In this document: positions 1-30,309 of the stretch, in pieces
How positions within the stretch are numbered: the first letter of the stretch is position 1
Layout of the letters: the number at the start of each line of letters is the position of its first letter
DNA from: Catajapyx aquilonaris
Taxonomy: Eukaryota
Direction: 5' to 3'
DNA length: 51,937 bases
NCBI GenBank assembly: GCA_000934665.2
Contig: JYFJ02002736.1
Span: 1 to 51,937, forward strand
Translations under genes and position numbers: made by a program
The notes under the pieces: generated by a model
What the model was told of the DNA's origin: nothing
The model's input: only the letters and a program-made list of their open reading frames with translations
The model's database searches: none

Positions 1-51
1 TAGCTTGCATCTCCCTTCATCGCTGACTACCCCTCATAGGGAAATGTCGTG

Positions 52-98
52 ATGTTGTTGTTGTTGTTGTTGTATTATTATTATTATTATTATTATTG
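52..98. repeat. Compound trinucleotide microsatellite (TTG)n followed by (TTA)n
   Basis: Directly visible: tgttgttgttg...ttgtattattattatt... Confidence 0.9.
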
Positions 99-741
99 GG
101 TGGAATTTTCGTCCCACTGCTAATTACTGCTAACTTAGTAGTAGGCCTACCATTGTTGGCACCGTTGGCAAGTGAGACGAAAATGCCACCCAATATTATT
201 ATGTAGGGTAATATGGGCTATTTATGATTGGAATGTTGTGTTTGTACCTGTGTGTATGTGAGATAAGCTGCACCACCTGCATCATCACTAAACAACCCCT
301 CCCCCTCCCCTCCTATTGTTGCATGACAGATTGATTCTGTTTATTATGTAGATTTATGCAGATGTGCGTTGGAGCTATGCTGTTGTTTCCCCTGCACTCT
401 GATGGGTGTGGTAATCAATTTCAATATATTTCATACCATTTAGCATTGCGTATGAAGTTGTAATTTCGGTTAGTACATTACAACAACGCAGTCTGTTGGT
501 TTCATCTGCCTCGAACCAGTTTGGTAGGGCAATTCGATCGCAAGGTCCCCTGCCAAACCCTCCCCCACCCTCCCCCACCCCCCCCCCTCTCTCTCTCGGT
601 GAATCTACTACTACCCCACCCCCACCTAGGCTATGCTTAGGTCCAATGGGCCGGCCTGCCAGCATCCAAAAGTGGCCTCTATGACACAAGTAGTGTTGCG
701 CCCGGCTCATTCCAGGGCCCCCACCCTCCACACCCGGCGCC

Positions 742-749
742 TATATAAA
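742..749 (+). promoter_or_regulatory. TATA box of the microprotein gene
   Basis: TATATAAA in a GC-rich context about 110 nt upstream of ATG 856; Inr-like TCAGT at 792-796. Confidence 0.6.
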
Positions 750-855
750 CCCGGTATTGCGCGTGAAACCGGGCGTTTACACACCAGACACTCAGTGACA
801 ACACATCAATCGTTTTTCCCAAAGAAACCACTGTTGAAGCTTAAAATCAGCAACA

Positions 856-1130
856 ATGGCCGGAGGAAAGAAGGGTAAGTGCGTCGTGGCAAAAAAAAAA
901 TAAGTGTGCGGTGAATCCGGCCAGCTATAAGTGACCTTTTGACCTCAGGTGGCAAGAAGGAGGATAAGTCCCAGCAGCAGGGGGCCAGTGAGGCTGGTGC
1001 CGAGAAGCAGAAGGGTGGCAAAGGGGGAAAGAAGGAGGCTAAGAAAGGTTAGTAATTGTGCCCCCCCCCCTCCCATTTTGTGACTGCCAAATTTACTGAC
1101 ATTTACTGAATTTTTGCAGAGACCAAGTGA
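856..1130 (+). CDS. Spliced 42-aa Lys/Gly-rich microprotein, MAGGKKGGKKEDKSQQQGASEAGAEKQKGGKGGKKEAKKETK
   Basis: Exons 856-874, 949-1047, 1120-1130 total 129 nt = 43 codons. Donors GTAAGT and GTTAGT, acceptors CTCAG and TTTTTGCAG, branch-like TACTGAC in intron 2, good start context (caacaATGG), AATAAA near 1518. Missed by the ORF track. Confidence 0.75.
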
Positions 1131-1990
1131 TAAGAGGCGTCTCCTGGAGATGACCTTCAATCTCCAACACCCTATGGACATATAAGCATTTTTTTTCGTT
1201 TGATATATCCAAAAAAAAAAAAAAAGAAGGGGAGGGAGCACTATGTTCTCTCTATTTTGTTTTGTAATTGTCGACGCACTATTTCGAGGGGTGGGGTTGG
1301 GGTGGGTTGGGTGGGATCACTGTTAGTAATTCCAAAAATTTCTAGTCTCTGTTTGGATCGGCTCCGATGATGACGGACTGAAATGTGGGGTGGGTGGGGT
1401 TGGGGTGGGATGTGCAAAAAAAAAAAAAAAAAAGAAATATGGGTGTTGGCAAGAGCTGTACATATTTTGAGTGACGGAGTTTGTAACTAAAAAAAAATGT
1501 GAGGGGGAAAACCTCAAAATAAATGACATACGTGAACTTCTCGTATTTTGTGTACATTCCGGTAGTTTTTTTTCAGGTAGATGAGTTGAAAAGGATTTTT
1601 GGGGTGGGGCCCGGGACGCCCTCCCACTGCGTACCCTCCTACCCTCCCCCCCTGTATTTTTTCTGCACAAAAATAACGGGAGCCCCTGAATGAGCCAAGG
1701 AAGTAGAATCCCAGCGCAGAAACGCGCAGATCAATGGCGAACCGGTGCAAACTGAACTGCGATGTTAGGATTTTATAGACCAGGGTTGGAGGTATGAAAA
1801 TGGCGGATATGTCATTCGCGAAAATTACAGCACATTTTTTTTTAAATGGCTATTTATTGAGTGGCAAGGTTGACATTTTCAGATTGGGGTGGGGTAGAAA
1901 TCAATCGTTGCTGCCAATGTGAGCTGAAATGGATGATTTATTTAGATAAGGTTCGCCGCGTCGTAATTTGACATCGATTTATATGTTACA

Positions 1991-4900
1991 TCAATGTGGA
2001 GGATGGGGAGAGCATATTACTGTGATCCAGTTGTTGCAACATGGGCATTGGACAGACATGCGTTTGCTGTCCATTTCCGGCTTCATATGCTCGATTCTCC
2101 TGAGGGCAGAGGTCACCCTGGATCTCCAAATAGCCCTGGATCGCTGGGCACTTGCTAACCGCATTTCCAGATTGGCATGCGATTGGGTCAGACGAGACAC
2201 CATCCGGTACAGAAGCCGAATTCCGACCTTGGACCTGTAGCGTCTTGATGGGGACGCCATGCCTGTACCGGAATGTCATAAATCAGCACCTGATCAGCAC
2301 ACAGGATGTAATAACCGGAGCATGTGATATGTTGCAATTTAAACAAAAAAAAAAGATCGTTACACATTCGGAGTTTATCAAGAGAGCTGCCCTCAGGTCC
2401 CTGAAATCAACACCCGGCAGATTATTTCTGGATATTACTGGAGGGCTTTGCACCGATCCATAAGCTGGAAACCGCATACCGGAGATTGATTTTTTTGTTA
2501 AACGGTGTGTATACCTGCATTGTCGGCTGGTTCCTTCCTGGTCTCGACCGCTGCTGGAACATCCTGAATGTCTTTTAACGGATCAGGTACTTTCAGGGTC
2601 CATGTCTCCTCAGTGGTGGCTGTGCAAAAGAGGGGACATGTTTAGGGAGACAGAAATAACAAGACTTTCCTCTCTGGCTTGGTCCCAAAAAGTACCGAAA
2701 AAAAGAGTAATGGGTAGAATTTTCAAGCGGCCAACAACCGGAGTCAAGGTGCGAAGTTTTTAGGAGCAGAGCCAAGGTTCGGGGTCAAGTGAAATTTTAG
2801 GGTGTCCATTCATCACAGGGGGCGCAATCACCTGATGGGTCTTGGACTGTTGGAGACATAGGCTCCTCCTTGATGTCAACCTCTTCGTCCAAGTCGTTCG
2901 CACTGCTGGTTTCAACCTCGACTGGCGAATCAGGCTCTTCGAAAACTGGCGAAACTGAAAATTTTAAAAAAAGGGCGATTTAATAATGAGAATTTATTCT
3001 CCCCATTGATCACAGAAGCACTCATAATCAAAACGCGAGCGCTCACCTGAAAGAGTCTGCGTGAATGCTCAATTAATTCCCAGAAAATAAACCGAAACAA
3101 CATTGGCTTAATAGGTTTAGGTCCTGGAAACTTTCAGGCAACTGCTAATCCCATTTATTATCGGTATATATACGGCTTCAAAGCCATTTTGGAACACTTA
3201 TCTTTACCGGTTATATGCTGTTGACAGGTGGAAGCGATGAAGGAAGGTAAAGGTGCGATAATGTTCACATTCTCATCAATACGGGGATAAGGGCACACCC
3301 AGAGTAAACTATTTATTGCTTTTTGAAGTAATTCATTTTGACAAAGGTTTCTGATTTTCTGAGGCGCATATACATTGGATGCTTGAGTATAAAGGCTCTC
3401 AGCCTTTCCTCTTTCCTGGTTGAATTTGTGCAGAACATTGGCATTTCCGAGCATACATTTGTATGCCATGACACGCAATTCATCCCGTGTTGGGACAAAA
3501 CCCTTCAGATTCCAATTTCTGGATGTGACGCACGAGTTGACCCCTTCGTTCTCTCTTCCTCCATCAGACTTCCTACAGGATTAATTTAAGTGAATCATAA
3601 TAAGTGATAGGAGAGTCGCAAATTAGGAAACTGCTCACATAATAGTCATCTGAACATATCACCGTATGATCTTAAAAGTGACGCCTACATTTTTAATGAG
3701 ATTTGAAATTATTCCACAAGGGGGGAAAAAAGCACGTACTCTGTAATTAATGTAATTAGTGTAGTCGGTAATGCATTAATGGTCTTACTCCACCAGACGC
3801 ATTGTAGCTCAGGCTATGAATAGTTCAGGTTCAATTTCGTCACATGAGAGACCGTACATCCATTATGCATTACTCTTCCCTGTGCAAGCTCGTATAAACC
3901 TTTTTAGGAAGCGTTGTTCCATTTTCTTCTTTTTTTTAAAAAATAATTTGCACCTAGATCTATACAGTACAACGGCCTCTTTAATAATACAAGACCCGGA
4001 ACTTCACACAGTACCAAGCTACATAATTTCGTCGTATAAAGGGCAAGTACGCATTACAATCTCCGGTCAATACGAGTTATGGATTTTACTCCAAACGACC
4101 TGATTGTTGCTTCTTCTTGGCGCAAATATTTGCACTGTGTGACTTGGGCAGTGCACCACCCTGTGTATGTCTAGGGTCGATTTTCCCTGCCGAGTAAATT
4201 CGTCCAAATATAGCACTGCAGCAAGAGAGAACTGCGCGGCATATATCACCCTAAGATTTTCCATCCGATCGTTATCAGGTGCTGATACACTTCTTAGAGC
4301 AATGAACCGAGAGATTACGCCTTTTTTTTCCAGTTGAAGCTGAAGCTTAAATATTCCAAGGTAGCCATGAAGCCTATTGTGTCCCAGCAGTGTGCTGTAT
4401 ATATACAGCTTATCCTGATATTCCAAGGTCTCCGCGTGGCTACAATGACCTCTTAACAAGCATGCGAAACAAGCGTACTTGGGCTCGACTATTTTTACAC
4501 CCATGATTGCGCTTCCGCTTTGCCGGCTTAGCAAGCCTTTACGACTATTGCTAGACAGTATGTACAGTTAGGCCTATGGATAGGAGCCAAAATATTAGGA
4601 CCAAGTGGAATCAAGATAGGCGGGGGGAGGCTGCAGGGCTTTTGAACTAGTTTGTTTGAAGGTGTCACATTTGATATAAATAGAGTACAGAGTACAGCAC
4701 ACTGTACAGGCGTTTTGCCAAGTGATTTGTTCGCAATAGTATCCGGAGTAGGCACTGGAGGCGGTGAGGCGGCTCAGTTGTGCGACATCTATTGGAAAGG
4801 GACGTGACTACCCTCGTTTTGCTATGTACTTAATAAACATGCATATTTAGTGCCAAAAAGCATACCATCCTCTCTATTCTTTTTGCCTTCGACTCGGTGT

Positions 4901-5223
4901 ATGATGTGGTAGTATGACCCCACTTTTCCCATGATTCCGGTACGTCTTGCTTGCCTGTACTTGCAGAGGAGGTTCTTGATTCGGATCCGACACTGTTTGG
5001 CTATGACCACGAACCCAAGACGGGTCATCTTGTCCGCTATTCCTTCCCAGACATTGCAGTTTCTGTAGGAGCTGTGCAGTTCGGACTGGAAAGCAGGTTC
5101 GGACCATAGGTTCAGGAGGACACGTGTGGCTTCCAGGCTCCAGACGTACTTTTGGTACATGCCGGACAGGGCTGGAGATGGAAGGGGTGAGACACACACA
5201 ACTTGGGGTGTCGGTTCCATCAT
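1991..5223 (-). CDS. Myb/SANT-like (Myb_DNA-bind_4 / MSANTD-type) DNA-binding protein, about 285 aa
   Basis: Exons 5223-4866, 2954-2832, 2619-2515, 2262-1991, all joined in phase 1 at GT-AG (858 nt). Exon 1 has the W..E.T..LL..W / VWE.IA..M / QCR.RIKNL..Y trihelix pattern, exon 2 an acidic IKEEP segment, and the last exon a helical stretch and CPCC. Minus-strand AATAAA near 1855. Extra exons in the 1.9-kb intron cannot be excluded. Confidence 0.75.
3313..3570 (-). mobile_element. Degenerate pogo/Tigger-like (CENP-B-type HTH) transposase remnant in the Myb gene intron
   Basis: GFVPTRDELRVMAYKCMLGNANVLHKFNQERGKA, then after a frameshift EERLRAFILKHPMYMRLRKSE; resembles the HTH_CENPB pattern GF..T...LR..AY....N...H.FN.E...AG..WL..FL.RHP.L.LRK.E. 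Confidence 0.6.
4019..4132 (-). pseudogene. Internally deleted second Myb/SANT-like fragment
   Basis: QIFAPRRSNNQVVWSKIHNSY*PEIVMRTCPLYDEIM*; the RR.N..VW.KI and TCP.YDE motifs are typical of this domain family. Confidence 0.4.
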
Positions 5224-6091
5224 GTCAATCTGGAAGCGAGTGTCAATATGTAGCAATTTTTTAAAAAAAATCTAAACACCCTGTACAAATGCTTGCGGCT
5301 ACCATATCGAAAATTATGTGACGTCACCTGCGTAGTAAAGCATGAAGTACTCTCATGCTCCAACCGCAAATCCTCGATGTACGTCATTATCTTCGTTACT
5401 ACGCAGACCTCGCGATAAAACACATGTAGACACGACATTCACTGGTAGTAAACCTAATCGCAAACCAATCTTGCTACTAATGCTTCCTAGCTACAGTATG
5501 ACGGACTTTGCTCTTTGTACCAGCGTATGATGACATGCTCACCTGATATTGTCTATTTTCTCAATTTTCGTGTCCTGTCCCACCGACCGTTGTCTACTGA
5601 TTGGAGATGCCAAATTTGAGGATCAAAATTTAATCCGGTTCTGCCAGAGCTCCGATGCCAAGTCCGGCAACTCTGGGGGGCTTTGACTCGGCTTAGCCCA
5701 GCTTCGATCCTCTTCGATTCACATGCGCTCACAACCCAAATTACTGGTTCATGCGCCGAGAATGAAAAGGACCCGGTTATTCCGGGCCACTAACATCTAC
5801 AGAACGATCCAAAAGAGTGGTCAGATTTCTGCGGAATCTAAGAATTTTTTTCCCCTCTATGAAGTTAAATGTATTAATGGGCATGTAGGTAATTGAAGAA
5901 TGGGACCAAACCATATCGAAGAATCACTGGGGTAATATCTGTTCAGAGGTACAGTAATATTTCCTAGTTAGGAATAAATGAGCCGCATGTCTGCTGAAAT
6001 TTTGTATAATAATCCGAACAGAAAAGTAAGTCTGACAGTAGGTAAACTTTATTTTCACATGTACGAGATTTAATAATATTTATCTAACAAT

Positions 6092-6903
6092 TCAACCAAA
6101 GGTCCTCTGAGGTCGTGGACCAGGAAAGTGGTCCCATTTTGGTGGCCTGCGTGGGTCAAACAGCTCCCTCCTCTTTCTCTCATCTTGTTGCGGTTGTTGC
6201 TGTTGGGGCTGCTGTTGTTGACCTGCATTGAACTTGGTGGCAATTTGATCCCATGACAGGAAGAAGATGCGATCCGGAAGACGATCTGGTGTTGTGGATT
6301 GTGGCTGTGATGGTGGGGGTGGTGCCTGTCGTCGGGTCTTTGATGACATGGACCAGGAGGACACCCTCATCACGTTCGACAGTGACCCAAGCTGCTCAGT
6401 GTTGAACCCTTCCCACGGAAGCACATTGGTCTCATCAGAGGTCAGCGAGGTCGGGGTCAGCTGAAGAAACCATTTCTCCATAGACGGGCTCCAGCGCAGT
6501 GGAAACCTCTCTTGGTTCCTGCAGCACACATAGTTGAAAGTGTTGGGCGTCCTTCCGCATTGGAACGGATCAGTCTGGAGGTCAAAATGCATTGTTAAAT
6601 ATGGGGCTATATGTCAAACAGGTCAAAATTACTTACGCTCAATTCTGCATCAAACACAGTGTCTTTAGTGACACAGAAGGAAAGAGGGGCGCAGAAGGTA
6701 GGTCGAGGACAAGCTATTTTTCCGGTGTCGGTCGAGGTGACAACCGTGGGCGGGATTGATGTCGGGGCTGTCGAAGACGATGCCAGAGGAGTCGTCTGGG
6801 TTACATTCTCCGACTGGGCCTGTCTTGGGTACCGATGCACGATGTATCCAGACGCTTCCGGACCACACACCACCAACCCCAGTAAGCACACCAGCAGCAA
6901 CAT
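6092..6903 (-). CDS. Secreted CLIP-domain protein without a serine-protease domain; propeptide-like precursor, 249 aa
   Basis: Exons 6903-6637 and 6574-6092, with a 62-nt GTAAGT..CAG phase-0 intron. Signal peptide MLLLVCLLGLVVC, Thr/Ser/Pro linker, six-Cys CPRPTFCAPLSFC...FQCG...YVCC, KTRR and RKRR sites. TATATAAA at 6959-6952, AATAAA at 6053-6048. Confidence 0.8.
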
Positions 6904-7372
6904 CCTTGGTCCTCAGATTCAAACAGGGGCAGATCAGACCAAAATCGTGCCTTTATATACTCTCAGGACAGGACCACGTGACTTATCAAAAAATACATAT
7001 GGCCCATTCGACATACACGCTGTAAATCTGGGCATTTATCTAAGGCTGGGATCCACGCCCGTAGCATAAGTGAAACAAGTCAGATGCAATGAAAAATAAT
7101 GAGAGGTCCGGTTGTGTTGTACGGTGGTGGTGCCAGAACCGTCTCACCACATCCGTTGCATAACCGCATCTTTCTTTCCTACCCCGATTTATTTCCAGGA
7201 GGGTGGGTGGACCTGCTTTGCCGGTACAGTACAGCCGCGGTTTTTTTCAGTCTGGGGAGGACCGAGCATGGTGACGCACGCTTCGGACATAAAAGAGAAG
7301 GATTTGCTCGAGGAGTCTTGCTGCGTTGATTCATAACTGAGAGGAGAGTGCGTGCGTGGGTGTGTGAATCAC

Positions 7373-7444
7373 TCAGTCGCTGCCAGGATATTCCCGCGGT
7401 CGGTCTCTGCACAGTCTGCTGTCCGTTACTGCAAGTCTGGACAG
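7373..7444 (+). other. Candidate non-coding first exon (possibly a distal p38 start)
   Basis: Inr-like TCAGT at 7373, strong donor CAG|GTATGT at 7445, upstream AP-1-like TGATTCA and TGAATCA. Confidence 0.35.
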
Positions 7445-8712
7445 GTATGTTCACTCATTTGGTCAAATAGTAGGTTGCTGGAGAGAACAATTCAATATTC
7501 CGTCCATTACTGGCTGCATGTTACATGTACGCAGATCGCAATGTTAAGTGTTCAATTGAAATTAGCCTTTTACAGTAATTGGCAAGCTACGTGCAACACA
7601 ATATAATACAAGTGGATAAAATCCATATCGAGATGTGCGTTTTTCTCTCTCTTGGAAACCGGGAAGCACCTGCGACTTCCCTGAATAAGGAACGTTCTGG
7701 GCGGTTCTGGAGAGTTTCAAGTACCTGATGTAAACATAAACAGACGTGTGTACATGCCATGTACTTGTATGATTGGGTGTGAGATCATACGTTCAGTTCG
7801 GGCAGTGTGTGTATTTGTTATTATTGACATTGCGCGTGTACACATAATGCAGCTTTGTATGAAGGAAGTGAACGACCCTTTGTACAGTACAGTGCAAGTG
7901 TATATGAAGGGGGCCAACACCTATTTTTGGCGTTCAAAGCACGGAAAATGTGTCGCAATATCATTTTCTCGTACAGTACATATATTTTTGTGTGGTGGGA
8001 GTAGCTGTGATTCACATCTACATATACCGGTAGCCTTTACCGTTACACAATCTCAAGATCTAAATAGGCCTACTACATCCGTACATGAGACATGTGTTAC
8101 AAAATGCAAAAGTTTATTCGTGGGATCTGTAATAAATTTACACTATAATATCTGCACACATATGTTGTGTTAGTATTGCAAATAGTAATGAACTTTTTAC
8201 GAGACCAGCTATGCCAGCTAAAATGTCTGGACGCAATTAAAATTTTACTTCTCGTTAAACTGTGGTTGCTGGAGTAAACAACTCGGAATAATTTCTTCCT
8301 CGTTGAACTGGGGGTAATACCACCAGCCATGTGTACCGATAATTTGTCTAAGGCCTAACCATGCTGCTGCGAGTAGGTTATTGCACAGTACTTGACACAC
8401 TTCGATCATTAGCCTGTAATATCGCGAGTGTTATTGATAAGACAAACATTGACGTAAGGCTTTGTAACTCCTCCCCATCTCCCACACATGGGGAGAACCA
8501 TACTGCATTTTTCCAAGGGAAGTTTACAGAGGTTTTCCATGCAATTTGCAGGGCGTATTTTTAGAATCTTGCTGGCGTATTTTATAGCGTCTAATGCACG
8601 TGATAATATGATTTCATGTCCGCACACCTGCTGAGTAATCATCAGTGGGGCAGGAAATGCAGTACAAAGACACCATCATTGGGTATCCATATATCCTTCA
8701 GTCACACACGCT

Positions 8713-8950
8713 GAGAAATCCCGAACGAATATGTACCACGCAATTACAGGGGGATTTTTGAGCGAATCCAACAAGAAAACCCCCAGATTAAACGCAAAGG
8801 GATTGAATAGAATCAGACCAAAGATAAACAAAAAAAGGCGGAAAATCCATGAGAGGGAAAGCTTTAAATTTTAATGACAAATAAATCCATGGTGTTCATC
8901 AAGCATCATTCCCGCGATAAGCCCTGAAAACCTCGCGTAATCCCAGATAA
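8713..8950. promoter_or_regulatory. Cluster of kappaB-like and GATA motifs (candidate immune enhancer)
   Basis: GAGAAATCCC 8713, GGGGGATTTTT 8749, GAAAACCCCC 8775, GGAAAATCC 8840, GGGAAAGCTT 8855; AGATAA 8822 and 8945, CGATAAG 8915. Confidence 0.45.
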
Positions 8951-9985: not shown

Positions 9986-10251
9986 GAAAGTTGCACGTTG
10001 GTGATGACTGATGAGTCACATCGCGGACAAAGTCCACCAGGGGTATGCGATTTTTCAAATTATTATTAATTTGTTTTTTTAATTTCCAAAAAATTTTTGC
10101 AGGTATCCTTGAGTGTGCAGTGCCGCACTTTGTCCCCGGTTAGGAACAAGGCAAAAAGTAGGAGATAACCCGCCGCATCATCCCCCTCGGCCATTCCACA
10201 CCTCCACCACAGTTTGGAACGCCCACGGATCTGTGTGGCTGCGTAGTTCGG

Positions 10252-16470
<6,219 letters not shown>

Positions 16471-22984: not shown

Positions 22985-24834
22985 TTATTTATCACCATCC
23001 TCCTGTGGGATGGAGTTTGTTTGCGATTTTGGGGAGTCTGCCCCCCCATCCATTTCACCCACCCCACCATCCACGTCCTCGTCCCCTTCCCCCCTCATTT
23101 CATTGGATGGCGGGTACGCTGGCTGCTCCTGTTGCAGTGGAGACGACTGCTGCGCTGCTGGATGGGATGAATGCTGGTACTGCATTTGCTGCTGCTGGTG
23201 TAGGACTTGCTGGATGGGCTTCCGGGTCCTCTCACCTTTGCGCCACAAGGTGATCTCCTGGAGAAGCCAAAGTATTAATACCATGCAACTCTGGATTTCT
23301 GTACAAATGAAGGCGGTGTTCTAAGTAAATGTGGCACGAACCTGCTGCTTGAAATACCTCCGGTCCTCCTCATCGACGAGCACGAGATTGAGGTAGTACC
23401 TGACTGAGAACTTCTTGTTGATGTCCCGCATGCTTGGTGTGAGGTCGTATCCTGCCAAGAAGACCCGGATGGGAATGCTCTCTCCTCTGACTGGTGCACC
23501 ATCCATTATCTCGTACTTGGCTATAGTCTCATTCTCATTGAATATGTTGGGTCCAGAGCCGGTCGTCTCCCGTTTTATTATGGCTATCTCCATGTGTTTT
23601 ATCTTGATACGGACCAACAGAAAATAGATCTTGCCCACTATCACATCTTTCAAGTGGTATCTAGCGGAAGGAATGAACACAGTGTGTGATAAAGTCATTC
23701 TAAGCATTAGATGATTAGAAGAACAGTACTGACTTGGACTTGTTGTACTCAAACTCTATGTGCAAACAGTCTTCAATTCCAACCTCCATCTTGATGCTGT
23801 TATTCATTTCTGGGTATGATGAAAGAGTATGGACTATTATGTCCATTTCTTTCACCACATCAGACAGCCGCCGGACGATTGTTACCCGAAGAAAGTACCT
23901 GCAGCATAACAGTCAAATGTACCTTCACGTTTGGAGTACGGCAGATATTATGACCAATAAATCACAAAACACTAGTTGAACTAATCTCAAACAGCCAATA
24001 ATTCTATAGTTATCAGTCATATTTCACGACATATTTCATTTTAAAATACATGGAGACGCTACATACCGTAACCTGACATTGGTTCCTGTGTATGACTCGT
24101 AAGGTTTCTCTACGTTGATAAACTCAAACCCATAGCTGGAATTTTGTAAGAGGTCACCAGGTCGAGCCAGCTCCTTGACCAGAGATGTGAACTCGTAATG
24201 ATTACCTCGGTCATAATAGAGTTCGATCTGGCCGATGAACTCTATCTTGATTCCTTGATGCTCAAGCTTGGAGCCAGACTTCTTCAACGTTATATTCACC
24301 TGCGGAAAGACGTTTATTTAAGCGATCTTAACACATGTTCATGACCCTGCAGTTGTTTCTTAAATCTAACCTTTCCAGACACCGTTTCGCCATCGTAATA
24401 GAGGAAATGCCGCTCCTTCTTCCCATCCTCCCCTTTGATCTCAGCCATTTTCCTAACGTCAGCGCCATCGAGTACAATGTCGATCTCCGCACTCTGACCA
24501 AAACCGAAAAAACTCTGCAAGAAAACATTACAGTAGTTATTACATGAATTGCTGCCATTACTAGCTTTAACAGTGCATTATTTTTCAGTTACTTGTAGTA
24601 GCATTACGGCATATAGCGGAGTTGCTCAATTTCACTTTAAAAATGTTGCTGAATCAATTCGTTAACATGCCGAGGGTGGTTCATGATTATTTACTGAACC
24701 GGCCGGATTGCAACATTCTGATCCTTCGCGAATCACATGCCTAGTTTAATCCGGGGGAGGTCACCTGACTCCAGGTCAAGGCTGACCCCCCATCTAAGCA
24801 ACGAGAGGTTGTCATATATACACACACTCACCAT
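22985..24834 (-). CDS. VPS26: Vacuolar protein sorting-associated protein 26 (retromer subunit), about 378 aa
   Basis: Exons 24834-24832 (ATG only, then GTGAGT), 24514-24371, 24299-24067, 23898-23734, 23660-23342, 23257-22985 (1137 nt). Hallmarks [69 protein letters not shown]. Confidence 0.97.
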
Positions 24835-25496: not shown

Positions 25497-28400
25497 ATGA
25501 AGATCAAGTGGCTGGGGGAAGCGGATTCGGAACCAGAGGGGTTCAAAGGGCGATATGAAGTGAAGCAGATGTATAGGTAAATGCATGTGATGATATTAAT
25601 CCGGCATAAGCCTCTTTTTTTTAAAAAATATGAAAATTGCAGTGGATTTCAGTATGGAAAGCTGGAAGTACAACGGGGGGATCATGTGCTTATCAGAAAC
25701 TGCGACACTGCTGATGAGGACTCGTATGATACCGGAGATGTGGCCAGGATCGTCTGTTTGTATGAAACAGGTATGCATATATGGAAAGAATGCAGTCCAT
25801 TGCGATTACATATGTACTTTTTTTTTGTTGCAGACCAGTTGACTGTGAATGAGAGCGATTGCTTCCGTGCAACTGTGGAGTGGTACACGCGACCTAAGCA
25901 GATCCCAAAAAGTGCCAAGTTTACTAATAATGACAAGTTCAACCATGACAAGTTCCATCCGACAAGGGAGGTTTTGTTGGAGGGACGCAAGTTTGACAGT
26001 GATATTGATGTAGAGAGCATCTTCGCCAAGTGCCAGGTATGATTACGATATTATGGATTTGATACCAACATTTTATTTTATCATCATCAACAACAACATC
26101 ACGACATTTCCCTATGAGGGGTAGTCAGCAATGAGACGCCATTTTATTTTATGATTTGTTTATTTGCAGTTGGTGAAAGCCAAACCTGAGGATGACCCTG
26201 AGGAACTAATAACTCGTCACAGCAATGGTCTGCCTGTGTTTGTGTCCCGCTTTTGCCTGCAGCAGGCTGGTGGCAGGCTGACACTCTGCAGCTTGGAAGA
26301 GGGGGCCAACCGAGCTTGTAAGAAGGGCCAGGGAGCCAGGCGGTCCCTTGGGGGTCAGCTTCAAGGTCGGCGGGAACATGAAGCCACACCGAGTCCAATG
26401 AAGAAGAGCGTGGAGGTCATGTCACCGGAACTACCACGACTTGGTTTGTTTTTGCCAAAATTTGTTGCTTTCAAATAACTAATTGGGGCTGCAATTGAAT
26501 CAGGTCCTGTAGTGAAGTACAAAATGAGAGGCATTGGAATGTCGCCATTGAAGACACCTACTAAGACTCCACCGAAATCTGCCTCAAAAAGAAAGCGCGA
26601 CGTTGAAGACAGTTCTGCAAGGAAGCGATCGAAATTGTCAGAAGCAGTGGTGTCTCGCAAAGTGGTCACTGACGAGGACTACACGCAAGTGGAAGCTGTG
26701 ACCAAGTAAGACTTAGCGAAATTATATACAATGTCAGTGTACACTTATAGTTGCTCTGGTTAGCCCTCTTGTTCCAATAAAACATCTTTTACAAATTTCA
26801 CACATGCAAAACTTCGTTACTGCAGTGTTTTGAGGATTAATGCAACTAATTACTCTCAAGGCTTTAGTAATGGAATACTTTTGGTGACAGGTCAATGAGA
26901 AAAGTTCGTTTCATCTGCTATCGTGAGAACCGCAAACCTGCAGCAGCAGATCTTAAGGCGACGAGCAGGTCTGTCAAAGTGGGTGACGACGACATTTTAA
27001 ACCTGCTGAATGATGATGATGTGGGGCCTGTGGACACTCCAAGTCCAAAGAAGTCCTCTAAAAGAATAGCTCAGCTGGCATCTCCAGCTGATTCTCCAGT
27101 GACTAAAAGGGCATACAGATCTCCAAAGGTTGTGACACCTTCCAAGTCTCCAAAGTCTGGGACATCATCTCAGTCTCCGAATATTGTGACACCAAGGAAA
27201 AGAGGGAACGCTTCTACCCCGTCTCAGGCCAAGCGACAGCTGCTCTTAGATGACTATAATAGTGGTGATGAAGACTGGAGTGCTCCAAATCGGAAGAAGA
27301 AGAAGAAGCTTCCTGTGAGTTAATAATTGAATCAATTCCATTTGTCATTCGAAGTGTAGAGGTAGTGCGACTGATACCCTATTACCACATGCACTGTATA
27401 TCCTGGATTAAATGACTAGTATGGGTGGAATTTCCACCTTTTTGGTTAGCAGTGACTAATCAGTACTGCTACAGTGTGTTAGTGTGCTAGGAAGAGTTTT
27501 GGGAACCTCAGGAACCTCTTAGCAGTGGCTTAGAAGTAGCTAGAAATATGTTAGCAGAAGGATGCAAATTCCAAGCTATATATTTTCAGGCACCTCGGAC
27601 TCCGACAAGTCGTACTCCAGCTGGCACACCAACTCGCAACACTACTCGGACTCCGTCTAGCACTCGTACTCCATCTACTCCCCTTCCTTCTCGCCAAACT
27701 CCTCTAGCTGCTCCCCATACCCCCCTGGAAGCTGCCTCCCACTTTCTCCAGGTGTCCTTGGTGCCTCCATCTCTCCCTTGCCGAGAGCAAGAGTTTTCTG
27801 ACATCTTCAATTTTGTGAGCAGCAAACTGTGCTCAGGGACTGGCGGCTGCATGTATATCAGTGGTGTACCTGGTACCGGAAAGACTGCTACAGTGAAAGA
27901 AGTGGTGGCACAGCTGCAAGAGGCGGAGGGAGAGGACGGATTGCCTAACTTCCAATTTGTGGAGCTGAATGGAATGAGGCTGACTGCCCCGCAGCAGGCC
28001 TTTGTGGAATTGTGGAAGGCCATTTCCGGGCAGAAGGCCACTGCTGATCAGGCTCAGGGGTTGCTTGAGAAGAGGTTTCGGAATGGAGGAGGTGGAAGAA
28101 AAAACAGCATACTGCTACTTGTTGATGAGGTGAGTGGACCATGATCTGAAAGTCAGGATAAAAATCCTAAATTCTTCAATTAACCTCCTATGTTTAATTC
28201 TTCGTCTAAGACACTAATTTGTAACATCCCGCTGATTTATTGCCTTCTTCCACAGCCTGCACTGTCCTTCCTTGCCTATCTTTTGTTGCTTGTGCTAATA
28301 GATCTTGTGGAGCTTTCATCGCAAATCGGTGAACACCTTGTCTCGGCACTGATTTTTAATCCAGGTTTAACGAAGACTTTTTGCGGCTTCGCTGGGTGTT

Positions 28401-30309
28401 TTTTTTTTTTTTTTTTTTGCTTCGGACGGTGCCAGCGTCATGTTGGGCAGAAAAATGGTGTTGCTCTGTGACTTTGTCTGCAGTACCCTCTTGCCTATGC
28501 ATGGCACTGCTTGAATCACAGCATAGTACTGTCAGTTGCAGACACTGTCAAAGAGCACACAGCACACTCACTTCCAGAGTGCTAGTGAAGCTGTCCTGTG
28601 CAGCACATTGTTCCAGGCAACCTACCTGGGTTTGCGACCCACTCTGATCAGTCCATGAAGTGCTGCAAGAGCTGTCAGACATGCCACTGGAACTTCAAAA
28701 GCTTGACATACAGTAACACAATTCTCCTTGCAAATTTTGGAAATTCTGAAGAATAGTCTTGGGGAAAAACTCTCATTGGAACAAGGCACATTTCAGGGAG
28801 GCAAGTTTTCCAAAATTGATTTGATTGATAACGTGGCTTTGATTGAGAGTATTGTCGACAAAGTGAAGTCTACTCTGTCCAATGATGACGATGAAGTTCT
28901 AAGGTCATCCATGATACTGGATTATGACTCCGACCTGTTTAAACCGTGATCTAATTGAGCCGCGGTTTAAACCTCTCTCCAGGCTAAGCCTTGGGCTAAA
29001 CCTTGTGGGACACTATATGACAGTATGTGTATTCAAGTGTGGCATTGTTCTCTCTGTTTTCAGCTGGATCTTCTTTGCACACGTAAGCAAAGTGTGATGT
29101 ACAGTCTCTTTGAGTGGCCCTCCTGGAAGAGTTCCAAGCTGGTGGTGATTGCCATTGCTAACACAATGGATCTGCCTGAGAGGGTCATGATGAGTCGAGT
29201 TTCCAGTAGGCTTGTGAGTATGCTTTGACTTCACCAAAAATTACTTTGCCATTACACTTGCTAATTCCATCAATAACATCAATTTCAAATGCCTTTTACA
29301 TATTTTTACCAGTATGTGATGTGGCAGTCAGATCAGAATTGCTTGTGATGTTGCAATCATTTTTTTTTTATATATTTAAAATTTTGTTTACAGGGCCTTA
29401 CTCGAATGACTTTTCACCCATACACCCACGAACAGCTAAGGCAGATCATTGCATCCAGACTGGAGGGACTCAAAGTGTTTGACCCAGATGCTATTCAGCT
29501 AGTGTCAAGGTATGGTCCTCCGCTCAATGGGCTCAAGGGCTGTCATCCTCAATGGTGGCCTCCTTATCCATGTAGTGTGTAAAGGCCAAGGACATATGCT
29601 CCTACATGAACCAGCTAGACTCTTAAATTATGTGTGTGAAACATGACTCTGGTTTTTGTGAATTACACAGGAAGGTAGCTGCTGTGTCTGGGGATGCACG
29701 GCGAGCCTTGGACATTTGCAGGCGAGCTGTTCAAATTGCCGAGGAGAAGTCTGGTGTCTCTGCCTCCAAGTCGCCTCGAAAGAAACCCAAAAATGGCTTG
29801 GTGGCTGTGACTGTAGGGATGAGCCATGTGAATGCAGCTCTCCAGGAGATGTGCTCTTCTCCAACCGTGATGGCAGTGAAGCAGTGCAGCGAGATTGAAC
29901 AGCTCTTCATTGCTGCCTTGCTCTCCGAATTCAAGCGACGGGGCTTGGAGGAGGCTGTTTTTGGAAAAGCATATGAGATTCTTGTTTCACTTTGTGCTTT
30001 CGAAGGTGTGTAGGCTATTCACAACTCCAGTTTAGAATATTGGAAGAGTTCCTTGATGGTAGTGCATAAAATATTTGGTAATATTTTATTGACGTTAAAA
30101 GTCTATTAACAATAAATAGTTGACTGTAACTTCTTTTGGCAGGTTTGCGTGTTCCCAGTGTAACTGAAGCTTTGGAGATGTGTGCCCGGCTAGTGCTATG
30201 CAAGCTTCTTTTGAGTGAGCCTGGCAAGCGGGGTGAGGCTCAGCGGATATGGCTGAACGTTAACACTGATGATGTGACCTATGCACTTAGGAATGCTGGT
30301 GATATCTGA
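25497..30309 (+). CDS. ORC1: Origin recognition complex subunit 1
   Basis: Exons 25497-25576, 25643-25770, 25834-26036, 26170-26443, 26504-26705, 26891-27314, 27590-28129, 29064-29213, 29394-29509, 29671-30005, 30143-30309. BAH domain, SP/TP-rich linker, [21 protein letters not shown]alker A, LLVDELD Walker [25 protein letters not shown], winged-helix C-terminus. Confidence 0.95.
28651..28930 (+). mobile_element. Degenerate hAT-type (KIAA1586/ZNF862-like) transposase fragment in ORC1 intron 7
   Basis: [21 protein letters not shown], then after a frameshift [47 protein letters not shown]; resembles the L.ELS.LSL.LQK region of these transposases (from recall). Confidence 0.45.

Follow-up and report, generated by a model that had tools for sequence, protein, structure and literature searches.

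The gene described here lies on the minus strand of the window (the whole stretch of DNA analysed, 51,937 nucleotides), and its coding sequence occupies positions 6092 to 6903, exactly the interval marked in a preliminary description of the same DNA. It is made up of two exons separated by a short intron, with the following flanking signals.

6637..6903, minus strand: exon 1, 89 codons, with the start codon at 6903..6901; encodes the leader, the linker and Cys1-Cys3 of a six-Cys module
6575..6636, minus strand: intron of 62 nt (GTAAGT...CAG, phase 0), located between Cys3 and Cys4 of the module
6095..6574, minus strand: exon 2, 160 codons; its translation is referred to as P0001
6092..6094, minus strand: stop codon TGA, after exon 2
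6952..6959, minus strand: TATA box TATATAAA, 49-56 nt 5' of the ATG, by reading of the sequence
6975..6980, minus strand: E-box CACGTG near the TATA box, by reading of the sequence
6982..6987 and 7035..7040, minus strand: GATA motifs, by reading of the sequence
6069..6074 and 6048..6053, minus strand: polyA signals ATTAAA and AATAAA, respectively, 18-44 nt past the stop, by reading of the sequence

The unspliced frame of exon 1 reaches a stop nine codons past the donor, and the spliced product is 249 aa long. The splice was confirmed by two database proteins, P0003 and P0005, which align gap-free over the exon junction. The GC3 of the gene is 0.58, a value included in the range of the neighbouring genes. 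As judged from the sequence, the gene is genuine and intact, and its two exons encode a secreted protein of 249 aa that belongs to a small, unnamed arthropod family. The layout of the protein is given below, the leader and the cleavage sites being assigned from the sequence and established consensus rules.

6847..6903, minus strand: hydrophobic leader, residues 1-19 (Kyte-Doolittle mean 3.33 over residues 2-13)
6712..6846, minus strand: S/T/P-rich linker of 45 aa, residues 20-64, with one NVT sequon
Residues 25-29, minus strand: YPRQA, by reading of the sequence
6521..6711 (a span that includes the intron), minus strand: six-Cys clip-like module, residues 65-107, C-x5-C-x5-C-x17-C-x10-CC
6365..6520, minus strand: residues 108-159, a conserved Trp-bearing extension that follows the CC doublet, the best-conserved part in comparison with P0003 and P0005
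6329..6340, minus strand: KTRR dibasic (convertase-type) site, residues 168-171, with no alignable site in the relatives
6179..6328, minus strand: Gln/Pro-rich low-complexity stretch, residues 172-221, with 14 Gln and 9 Pro among its 50 residues (composition, entropy)
6167..6178, minus strand: RKRR furin-consensus site, residues 222-225, located 24 residues from the C-terminus
6092..6166, minus strand: C-terminal 24 residues (23 and a terminal Gly) and TGA, the Gly being directly before the stop

All features that the preliminary description had listed are present in the sequence, on the minus strand. Monobasic cleavage between Arg and Gln of YPRQA was rejected, being pure conjecture with nothing supporting it. 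The cysteines of the module are residues 65, 71, 77, 95, 106 and 107, and the remaining cysteines of the 249-aa protein, residues 6 and 13, are both located in the leader. Hence, the mature protein would contain exactly six cysteines, none of which is spare for pairing with a protease domain, and the stretch of 60 residues between the module and the KTRR site is free of cysteine. The extension that follows the CC doublet includes the motifs QE-x-(L/F)P, (E/K)W(F/Y) and V(V/L)PW-x-G.

The preliminary description had stated that no trypsin domain follows the module, and this was borne out: the gene encodes a stand-alone secreted protein with a clip-like module, and P0003 and P0005 are likewise protease-less. 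The motifs GDSGG, DSGGP and R-[IV]-[IVL]-[GN]-G are absent in the six frames of the whole 51.9-kb window, AAHC has a single match in the window (28360-28644, plus strand), no trypsin family is matched by any of the 96 stop-to-stop ORFs in 1..7454 that are 45 aa or longer, and the coding sequence is followed by a stop and polyA signals. The downstream sequence examined past the gene amounts to 6.1 kb, and a protease exon farther downstream is argued against by the stop, the polyA signals and the protease-less relatives. The absence of a protease domain, together with the low-complexity tail, might also be taken to mean that the gene once encoded a clip-domain serine protease and has been decaying since the loss of its protease exons, i.e. 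a pseudogene or a non-functional ORF. This is very improbable in view of the intact ORF, the canonical splice sites, the TATA box and the polyA signals, the retention of six of six cysteines, and the existence of two distant relatives with the same protease-less design and an extension after the module.

When exon 2 was searched with HMMER against 1.84 billion representative proteins, three matches with E <= 0.001 were found. Two of these are true relatives, namely P0003, with 305 aa and E 2.9e-8, and P0005, with 294 aa and E 1.2e-5. The third, P0004, a repetitive protein of 1709 aa, was dropped as compositional, its 18 matching stretches falling on the S/P/Q-rich low-complexity part of the query. 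The spliced 249-aa protein scores 63.6 bits against P0003 and 57.6 bits against P0005. In both cases the alignment starts shortly before Cys1 and ends ~50 residues beyond the CC doublet. The relatives are distant, with an identity of 28% overall and ~40% in the core. In tblastn searches with P0003 and P0005, the sole match in the window was the clip-like gene, with no paralogue, and residues 22-43 of P0005 matched positions 6720..6652 in exon 1.

The layout of P0003 and P0005 consists of a leader, module 1 directly after it, the extension, module 2, an acidic tail and a polybasic run. Both proteins therefore contain two six-Cys modules and no protease, as compared with the single module of the protein described here, and in both the second module occupies the place that corresponds to the KTRR region. 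The polybasic run (RRKRR or RRRRR) is followed by 12 residues in P0003 and by 8 in P0005, and the tails past it have EGVYR in common and end in Asn (...SGN and ...YRN). Across the three proteins, the core is conserved and the tails are not. The conserved core of the family consists of one or two protease-less six-Cys modules with clip spacing and a Trp-bearing extension of ~50 residues after the first or only module. The linker of the 249-aa protein (6712-6846, minus strand) starts with TTPLA, similar to the TTPLS that closes the extension before module 2 (P0003 residues 107-134). This weak five-residue match hints at an ancestral tandem repeat of module plus extension, of which a remnant of the preceding unit would have been kept.

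P0003 and P0005 each form a single-member, unnamed cluster and are located on contigs of ~1.08 kb. In word-indexed protein searches, none of the 57 candidates obtained with P0001 was related, profile A1 found P0003 alone among 3062 candidates, and P0005 retrieved only itself among 418 candidates. A metagenome scan for further relatives gave 134 pattern matches, of which none was confirmed. The ESM Atlas gave no usable match with P0001 and, with residues 18-190 of P0003, only a 0.75 match to an unnamed cluster. As there are just two relatives, both unnamed, any role of the family is assigned wholly by analogy. The gene is a plausible member of a fast-evolving secreted family.

A family so sparse and divergent, with two relatives in 1.84 billion proteins and none more in the word-indexed searches, and with low-complexity tails, is also consistent with a fast-evolving secreted protein that has a non-immune role, e.g. 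in reproduction, saliva or cuticle, for which the module would serve as a generic scaffold; the basic sites and the terminal Gly would be incidental. The promoter points in the same direction, as the proximal region (6904-7400) includes no kappaB-like motif GGGRNWYYYY or other immune-type motif. The window as a whole contains 13 kappaB-like matches, fewer than the shuffle mean of 23. Three distinct kappaB-like motifs, accounting for 5 of the 13 window matches when overlaps are counted, are found within 72 bp at 8713-8784, in the first intron of the plus strand neighbour and ~1.8 kb upstream of the ATG of the clip-like gene. As read from its motifs, this cluster could be an immune enhancer for the clip-like gene or for the neighbour. 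Both the cluster, though it may serve the neighbour, and the similar placing of the polybasic site in all three proteins speak against a non-immune role, which we regard as rather unlikely but as an appreciable alternative.

The clip-like gene is arranged head-to-head with this plus strand gene, whose first exon ends at 7444 with the GT donor at 7445. The two starts are at most a few hundred bases apart, which suggests that both genes use one bidirectional promoter region (6904-7444). The element GGAAAATCC and a GATA motif occur near the kappaB-like cluster (8713-8850), and the ORF at 10162-10632 of the plus strand neighbour contains what appears to be the start of a kinase, for which the Pfam match on the short exon was not significant.

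The sequences of clip domains are hypervariable, and it is the cysteine pattern by which they are recognised: six cysteines in three disulfides, Cys1 and Cys6 being separated by 30-70 residues and Cys2 and Cys3 by exactly five (PMC1761132, in part). The distance between Cys3 and Cys4 is <16 residues in group 1 and longer, with a mean of ~23, in group 2 (PMC1761132, in part). In the module the spacing is 5-5-17-10-0, so that Cys1 and Cys6 have 41 residues between them, which is within the published limits for clip domains. The four modules of P0003 and P0005 all have the spacing 5-5-(16 to 24)-10-0, so that the five modules of the family conform to C-x5-C-x5-C-x16-24-C-G-x9-CC, in which a Gly follows Cys4. 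The module thus shares with clip domains the six cysteines, the CC end, the five residues between Cys2 and Cys3 and the span of 30-70 residues (PMC1761132, in part), as well as the long Cys3-Cys4 segment of group 2, the CG at Cys4 and the occurrence in secreted arthropod proteins.

The preliminary description had called the module CLIP-like, which agrees with the cysteine spacing in 5 of 5 modules; the match to the Pfam CLIP profile is not significant. The Pfam CLIP profile (PF12032) gave no match at E <= 10 on the exon pieces, between which the module is split, and none on P0005. On module 2 of P0003 it gave 10.7 bits (E 0.67, profile positions 10-54 of 54), as compared with a gathering score of 20 bits; P0003 has five weak Pfam matches, of which this is one. 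No clip protein was found when PDB sequences were searched with a profile, and the one match, at E 1, was unrelated. An AlphaFold2 model of P0003, built on a 4-row alignment, had a mean pLDDT of 38 and a pTM of 0.22 and was too poor for fold comparison. As the Pfam match is below threshold and the model is unusable, the module is called clip-like here; its membership of the clip domains is unproven and is proposed from the cysteine spacing.

Relative to clip-domain proteases, the protein has neither a protease or protease-like domain nor a linker cysteine, and its Pfam match is sub-threshold. Where clip proteases usually have a linker and an activation site, this protein has the Trp-bearing extension and a disordered tail that bears convertase sites.

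The cysteine order C...C...C...C...CC is also that of beta-defensins and big-defensin type peptides, and the recombinant clip domain of the crayfish prophenoloxidase-activating enzyme is reportedly antibacterial. Since the removal of pro-regions at polybasic sites is usual for antimicrobial peptides, the six-Cys module could itself be the effector, a defensin-like, disulfide-stabilised antimicrobial, with the tail as a pro-region removed by furin. However, the net charge of the module is -1, as is that of the extension, unlike the cationic defensins, the loops are far longer than in defensins, and no match to any defensin family was found. We consider a defensin-like effector distinctly unlikely. 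As both the module and the extension are non-cationic, a binding role fits them better than direct killing, and a clip-domain homologue that binds microbes has been described (PMC3665817, in part).

In the tail of the protein, RKRR fits the furin consensus R-x-K/R-R, and the Gly immediately before the stop would be suited to act as an amide donor, as C-terminal Gly residues do. The preliminary description had inferred from these features a polyprotein that couples a free CLIP module to an amidated antimicrobial or signalling peptide of 23 residues. In this model, cuts at KTRR and RKRR and conversion of the Gly to an amide would make the Pro/Arg-rich peptide the main product, with the clip-like module as a carrier or a second product. 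As to the conservation of RKRR, a furin-type polybasic site followed by 8-24 C-terminal residues is present in all three proteins; KTRR has no counterpart in the relatives. The terminal Gly, by contrast, occurs in the clip-like protein only (1 of 3), as P0003 and P0005 end in Asn. The same is true of the Pro/Arg-rich tail, also found in 1 of 3 proteins; the 12- and 8-residue tails of the relatives, with their common EGVYR, are unrelated to it and not Pro-rich. The family thus conserves the cut and not the peptide. Given that P0003 and P0005 are distant, this weakens the idea of a peptide product and does not refute it.

As a post hoc test, residues 108-249 were shuffled 200,000 times with their composition preserved. 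A furin-type site (R-x-[KR]-R) fell 8-40 residues before the end in 4.4% of the shuffles, a terminal Gly was present in 3.5%, and both in 0.15%. RKRR together with a terminal Gly is therefore uncommon in shuffled sequence, which leaves room for a real peptide product. The 23-mer contains 6 Pro (26%), 4 Arg, 1 Lys and 3 Asp+Glu, with a net charge of +2 and one PRP. Proline-rich antimicrobial peptides (PrAMPs) are defined by at least 25% Pro and a net charge of at least +1, with a PRP motif being indicative, and the essential rows of the definition also ask for activity against microbes and for DnaK or the 70S ribosome as the target inside the cell (PMC7736402 Box 1, in part). The 23-mer falls narrowly within the thresholds for composition, and its likeness to PrAMPs (26% Pro, net +2, one PRP; PMC7736402, in part) is one of composition only. 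It is unlike them in its low charge, as compared with a mean of +5 in known PrAMPs (PMC7736402, in part), in its three acidic residues, and in having no similarity to any listed PrAMP. Furthermore, the richness in Pro is not specific to the peptide, as the entire tail is Pro-rich (9 of the 50 residues upstream).

Insect antimicrobial peptide genes often encode several furin-cleaved products (PMC9246212, PMC9233930, in part), and the conserved position of the polybasic site would agree with release of a peptide. Nevertheless, the limited distribution of the Gly and the Pro/Arg-rich tail, the low charge, the acidic residues, the Pro-richness of the whole tail, the lack of a match to a named peptide family in any search, and the lack of a kappaB-like motif in the proximal promoter all count against the amidated peptide as the main product, and we hold that reading to be unlikely. 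A small probability is likewise given to the proposal that the three proteins represent an undescribed class of protease-free clip-like pro-proteins, in which the furin site would free a lineage-specific bioactive tail, here the amidated 23-mer, acting as an antimicrobial or as a signal. The antimicrobial identity of the last 23 residues is possible but unsupported.

Furin-processed antimicrobial polyprotein genes of insects, such as Baramicin and Drosocin, are immune-induced and are not known to encode a disulfide-knotted clip-like domain. The clip-like gene resembles Baramicin and Drosocin, the latter giving two peptides, in the signal peptide and in the segments separated by R-x-K/R-R (PMC8423362, PMC9246212, PMC9233930, in part), and with such segmentation it could yield several secreted products. 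It differs from them in that P0003 and P0005 have no counterpart of the putative peptide; its processing is predicted from the sequence. The penaeidins, which are peptides of shrimp, are comparable as secreted arthropod proteins with a Pro-rich segment and a six-Cys domain (PMC7736402, in part). In penaeidins, the Pro-rich domain precedes the Cys-rich domain (PMC7736402, in part), whereas in the clip-like protein the order is reversed, a furin site lies between the two, the cysteine pattern is another one and there is no detectable homology.

The best reading of the gene, to which we give about an even chance, is that it encodes a secreted, convertase-trimmed clip-like protein with a binding or regulatory function. 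The leader would be removed during secretion, and the six cysteines would form three disulfides as in clip domains, in which they are C1-C5, C2-C4 and C3-C6. The S/T/P linker is probably O-glycosylated, and a furin-type convertase of the secretory pathway would cut at RKRR and perhaps at KTRR, the cleavage at RKRR trimming a short, fast-evolving tail. The folded module and the extension would then be the working part, engaged in extracellular binding or regulation, for which they could serve as a free adaptor or decoy. By analogy with the usual setting of clip domains, the likeliest arena would be the haemolymph protease and phenoloxidase network. For such a secreted regulatory protein, the released C-terminal peptide would be either a by-product or, at best, an addition confined to its lineage.

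Nearly all known clip domains are found at the N-terminus of immune and developmental proteases of arthropods, which they regulate. In the open-access literature searched, neither a stand-alone clip gene nor a clip-plus-peptide precursor is described. The phrase 'clip domain only' occurs once in PMC4553444 (in part), which by its title deals with a parasitoid venom protease homologue that needs both its clip and its protease-like domain. A conserved family of secreted proteins that have clip-like modules only, with a convertase site near the end, would, if true, suggest that free clip modules work as adaptors or decoys in protease cascades. If the reading as an amidated peptide were true, it would represent a new packaging of a peptide effector, in which a clip module and a peptide are derived from one precursor.

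Directly downstream of the clip-like gene and on the same strand, an intronless Myb/SANT-like ORF is present at 4825-5271 (minus strand, ATG at 5223), which matches Myb_DNA-bind_4 with E 3.1e-16 and encodes the only real domain downstream. This ORF may be a separate small gene or transposon-derived. Elsewhere in the window, two housekeeping neighbours were identified: a Vps26 exon (E 1.5e-54) at 23321-23755 on the minus strand and, at 25581-30013 on the plus strand, an ORC1-like gene that matches BAH, AAA and Cdc6_C.
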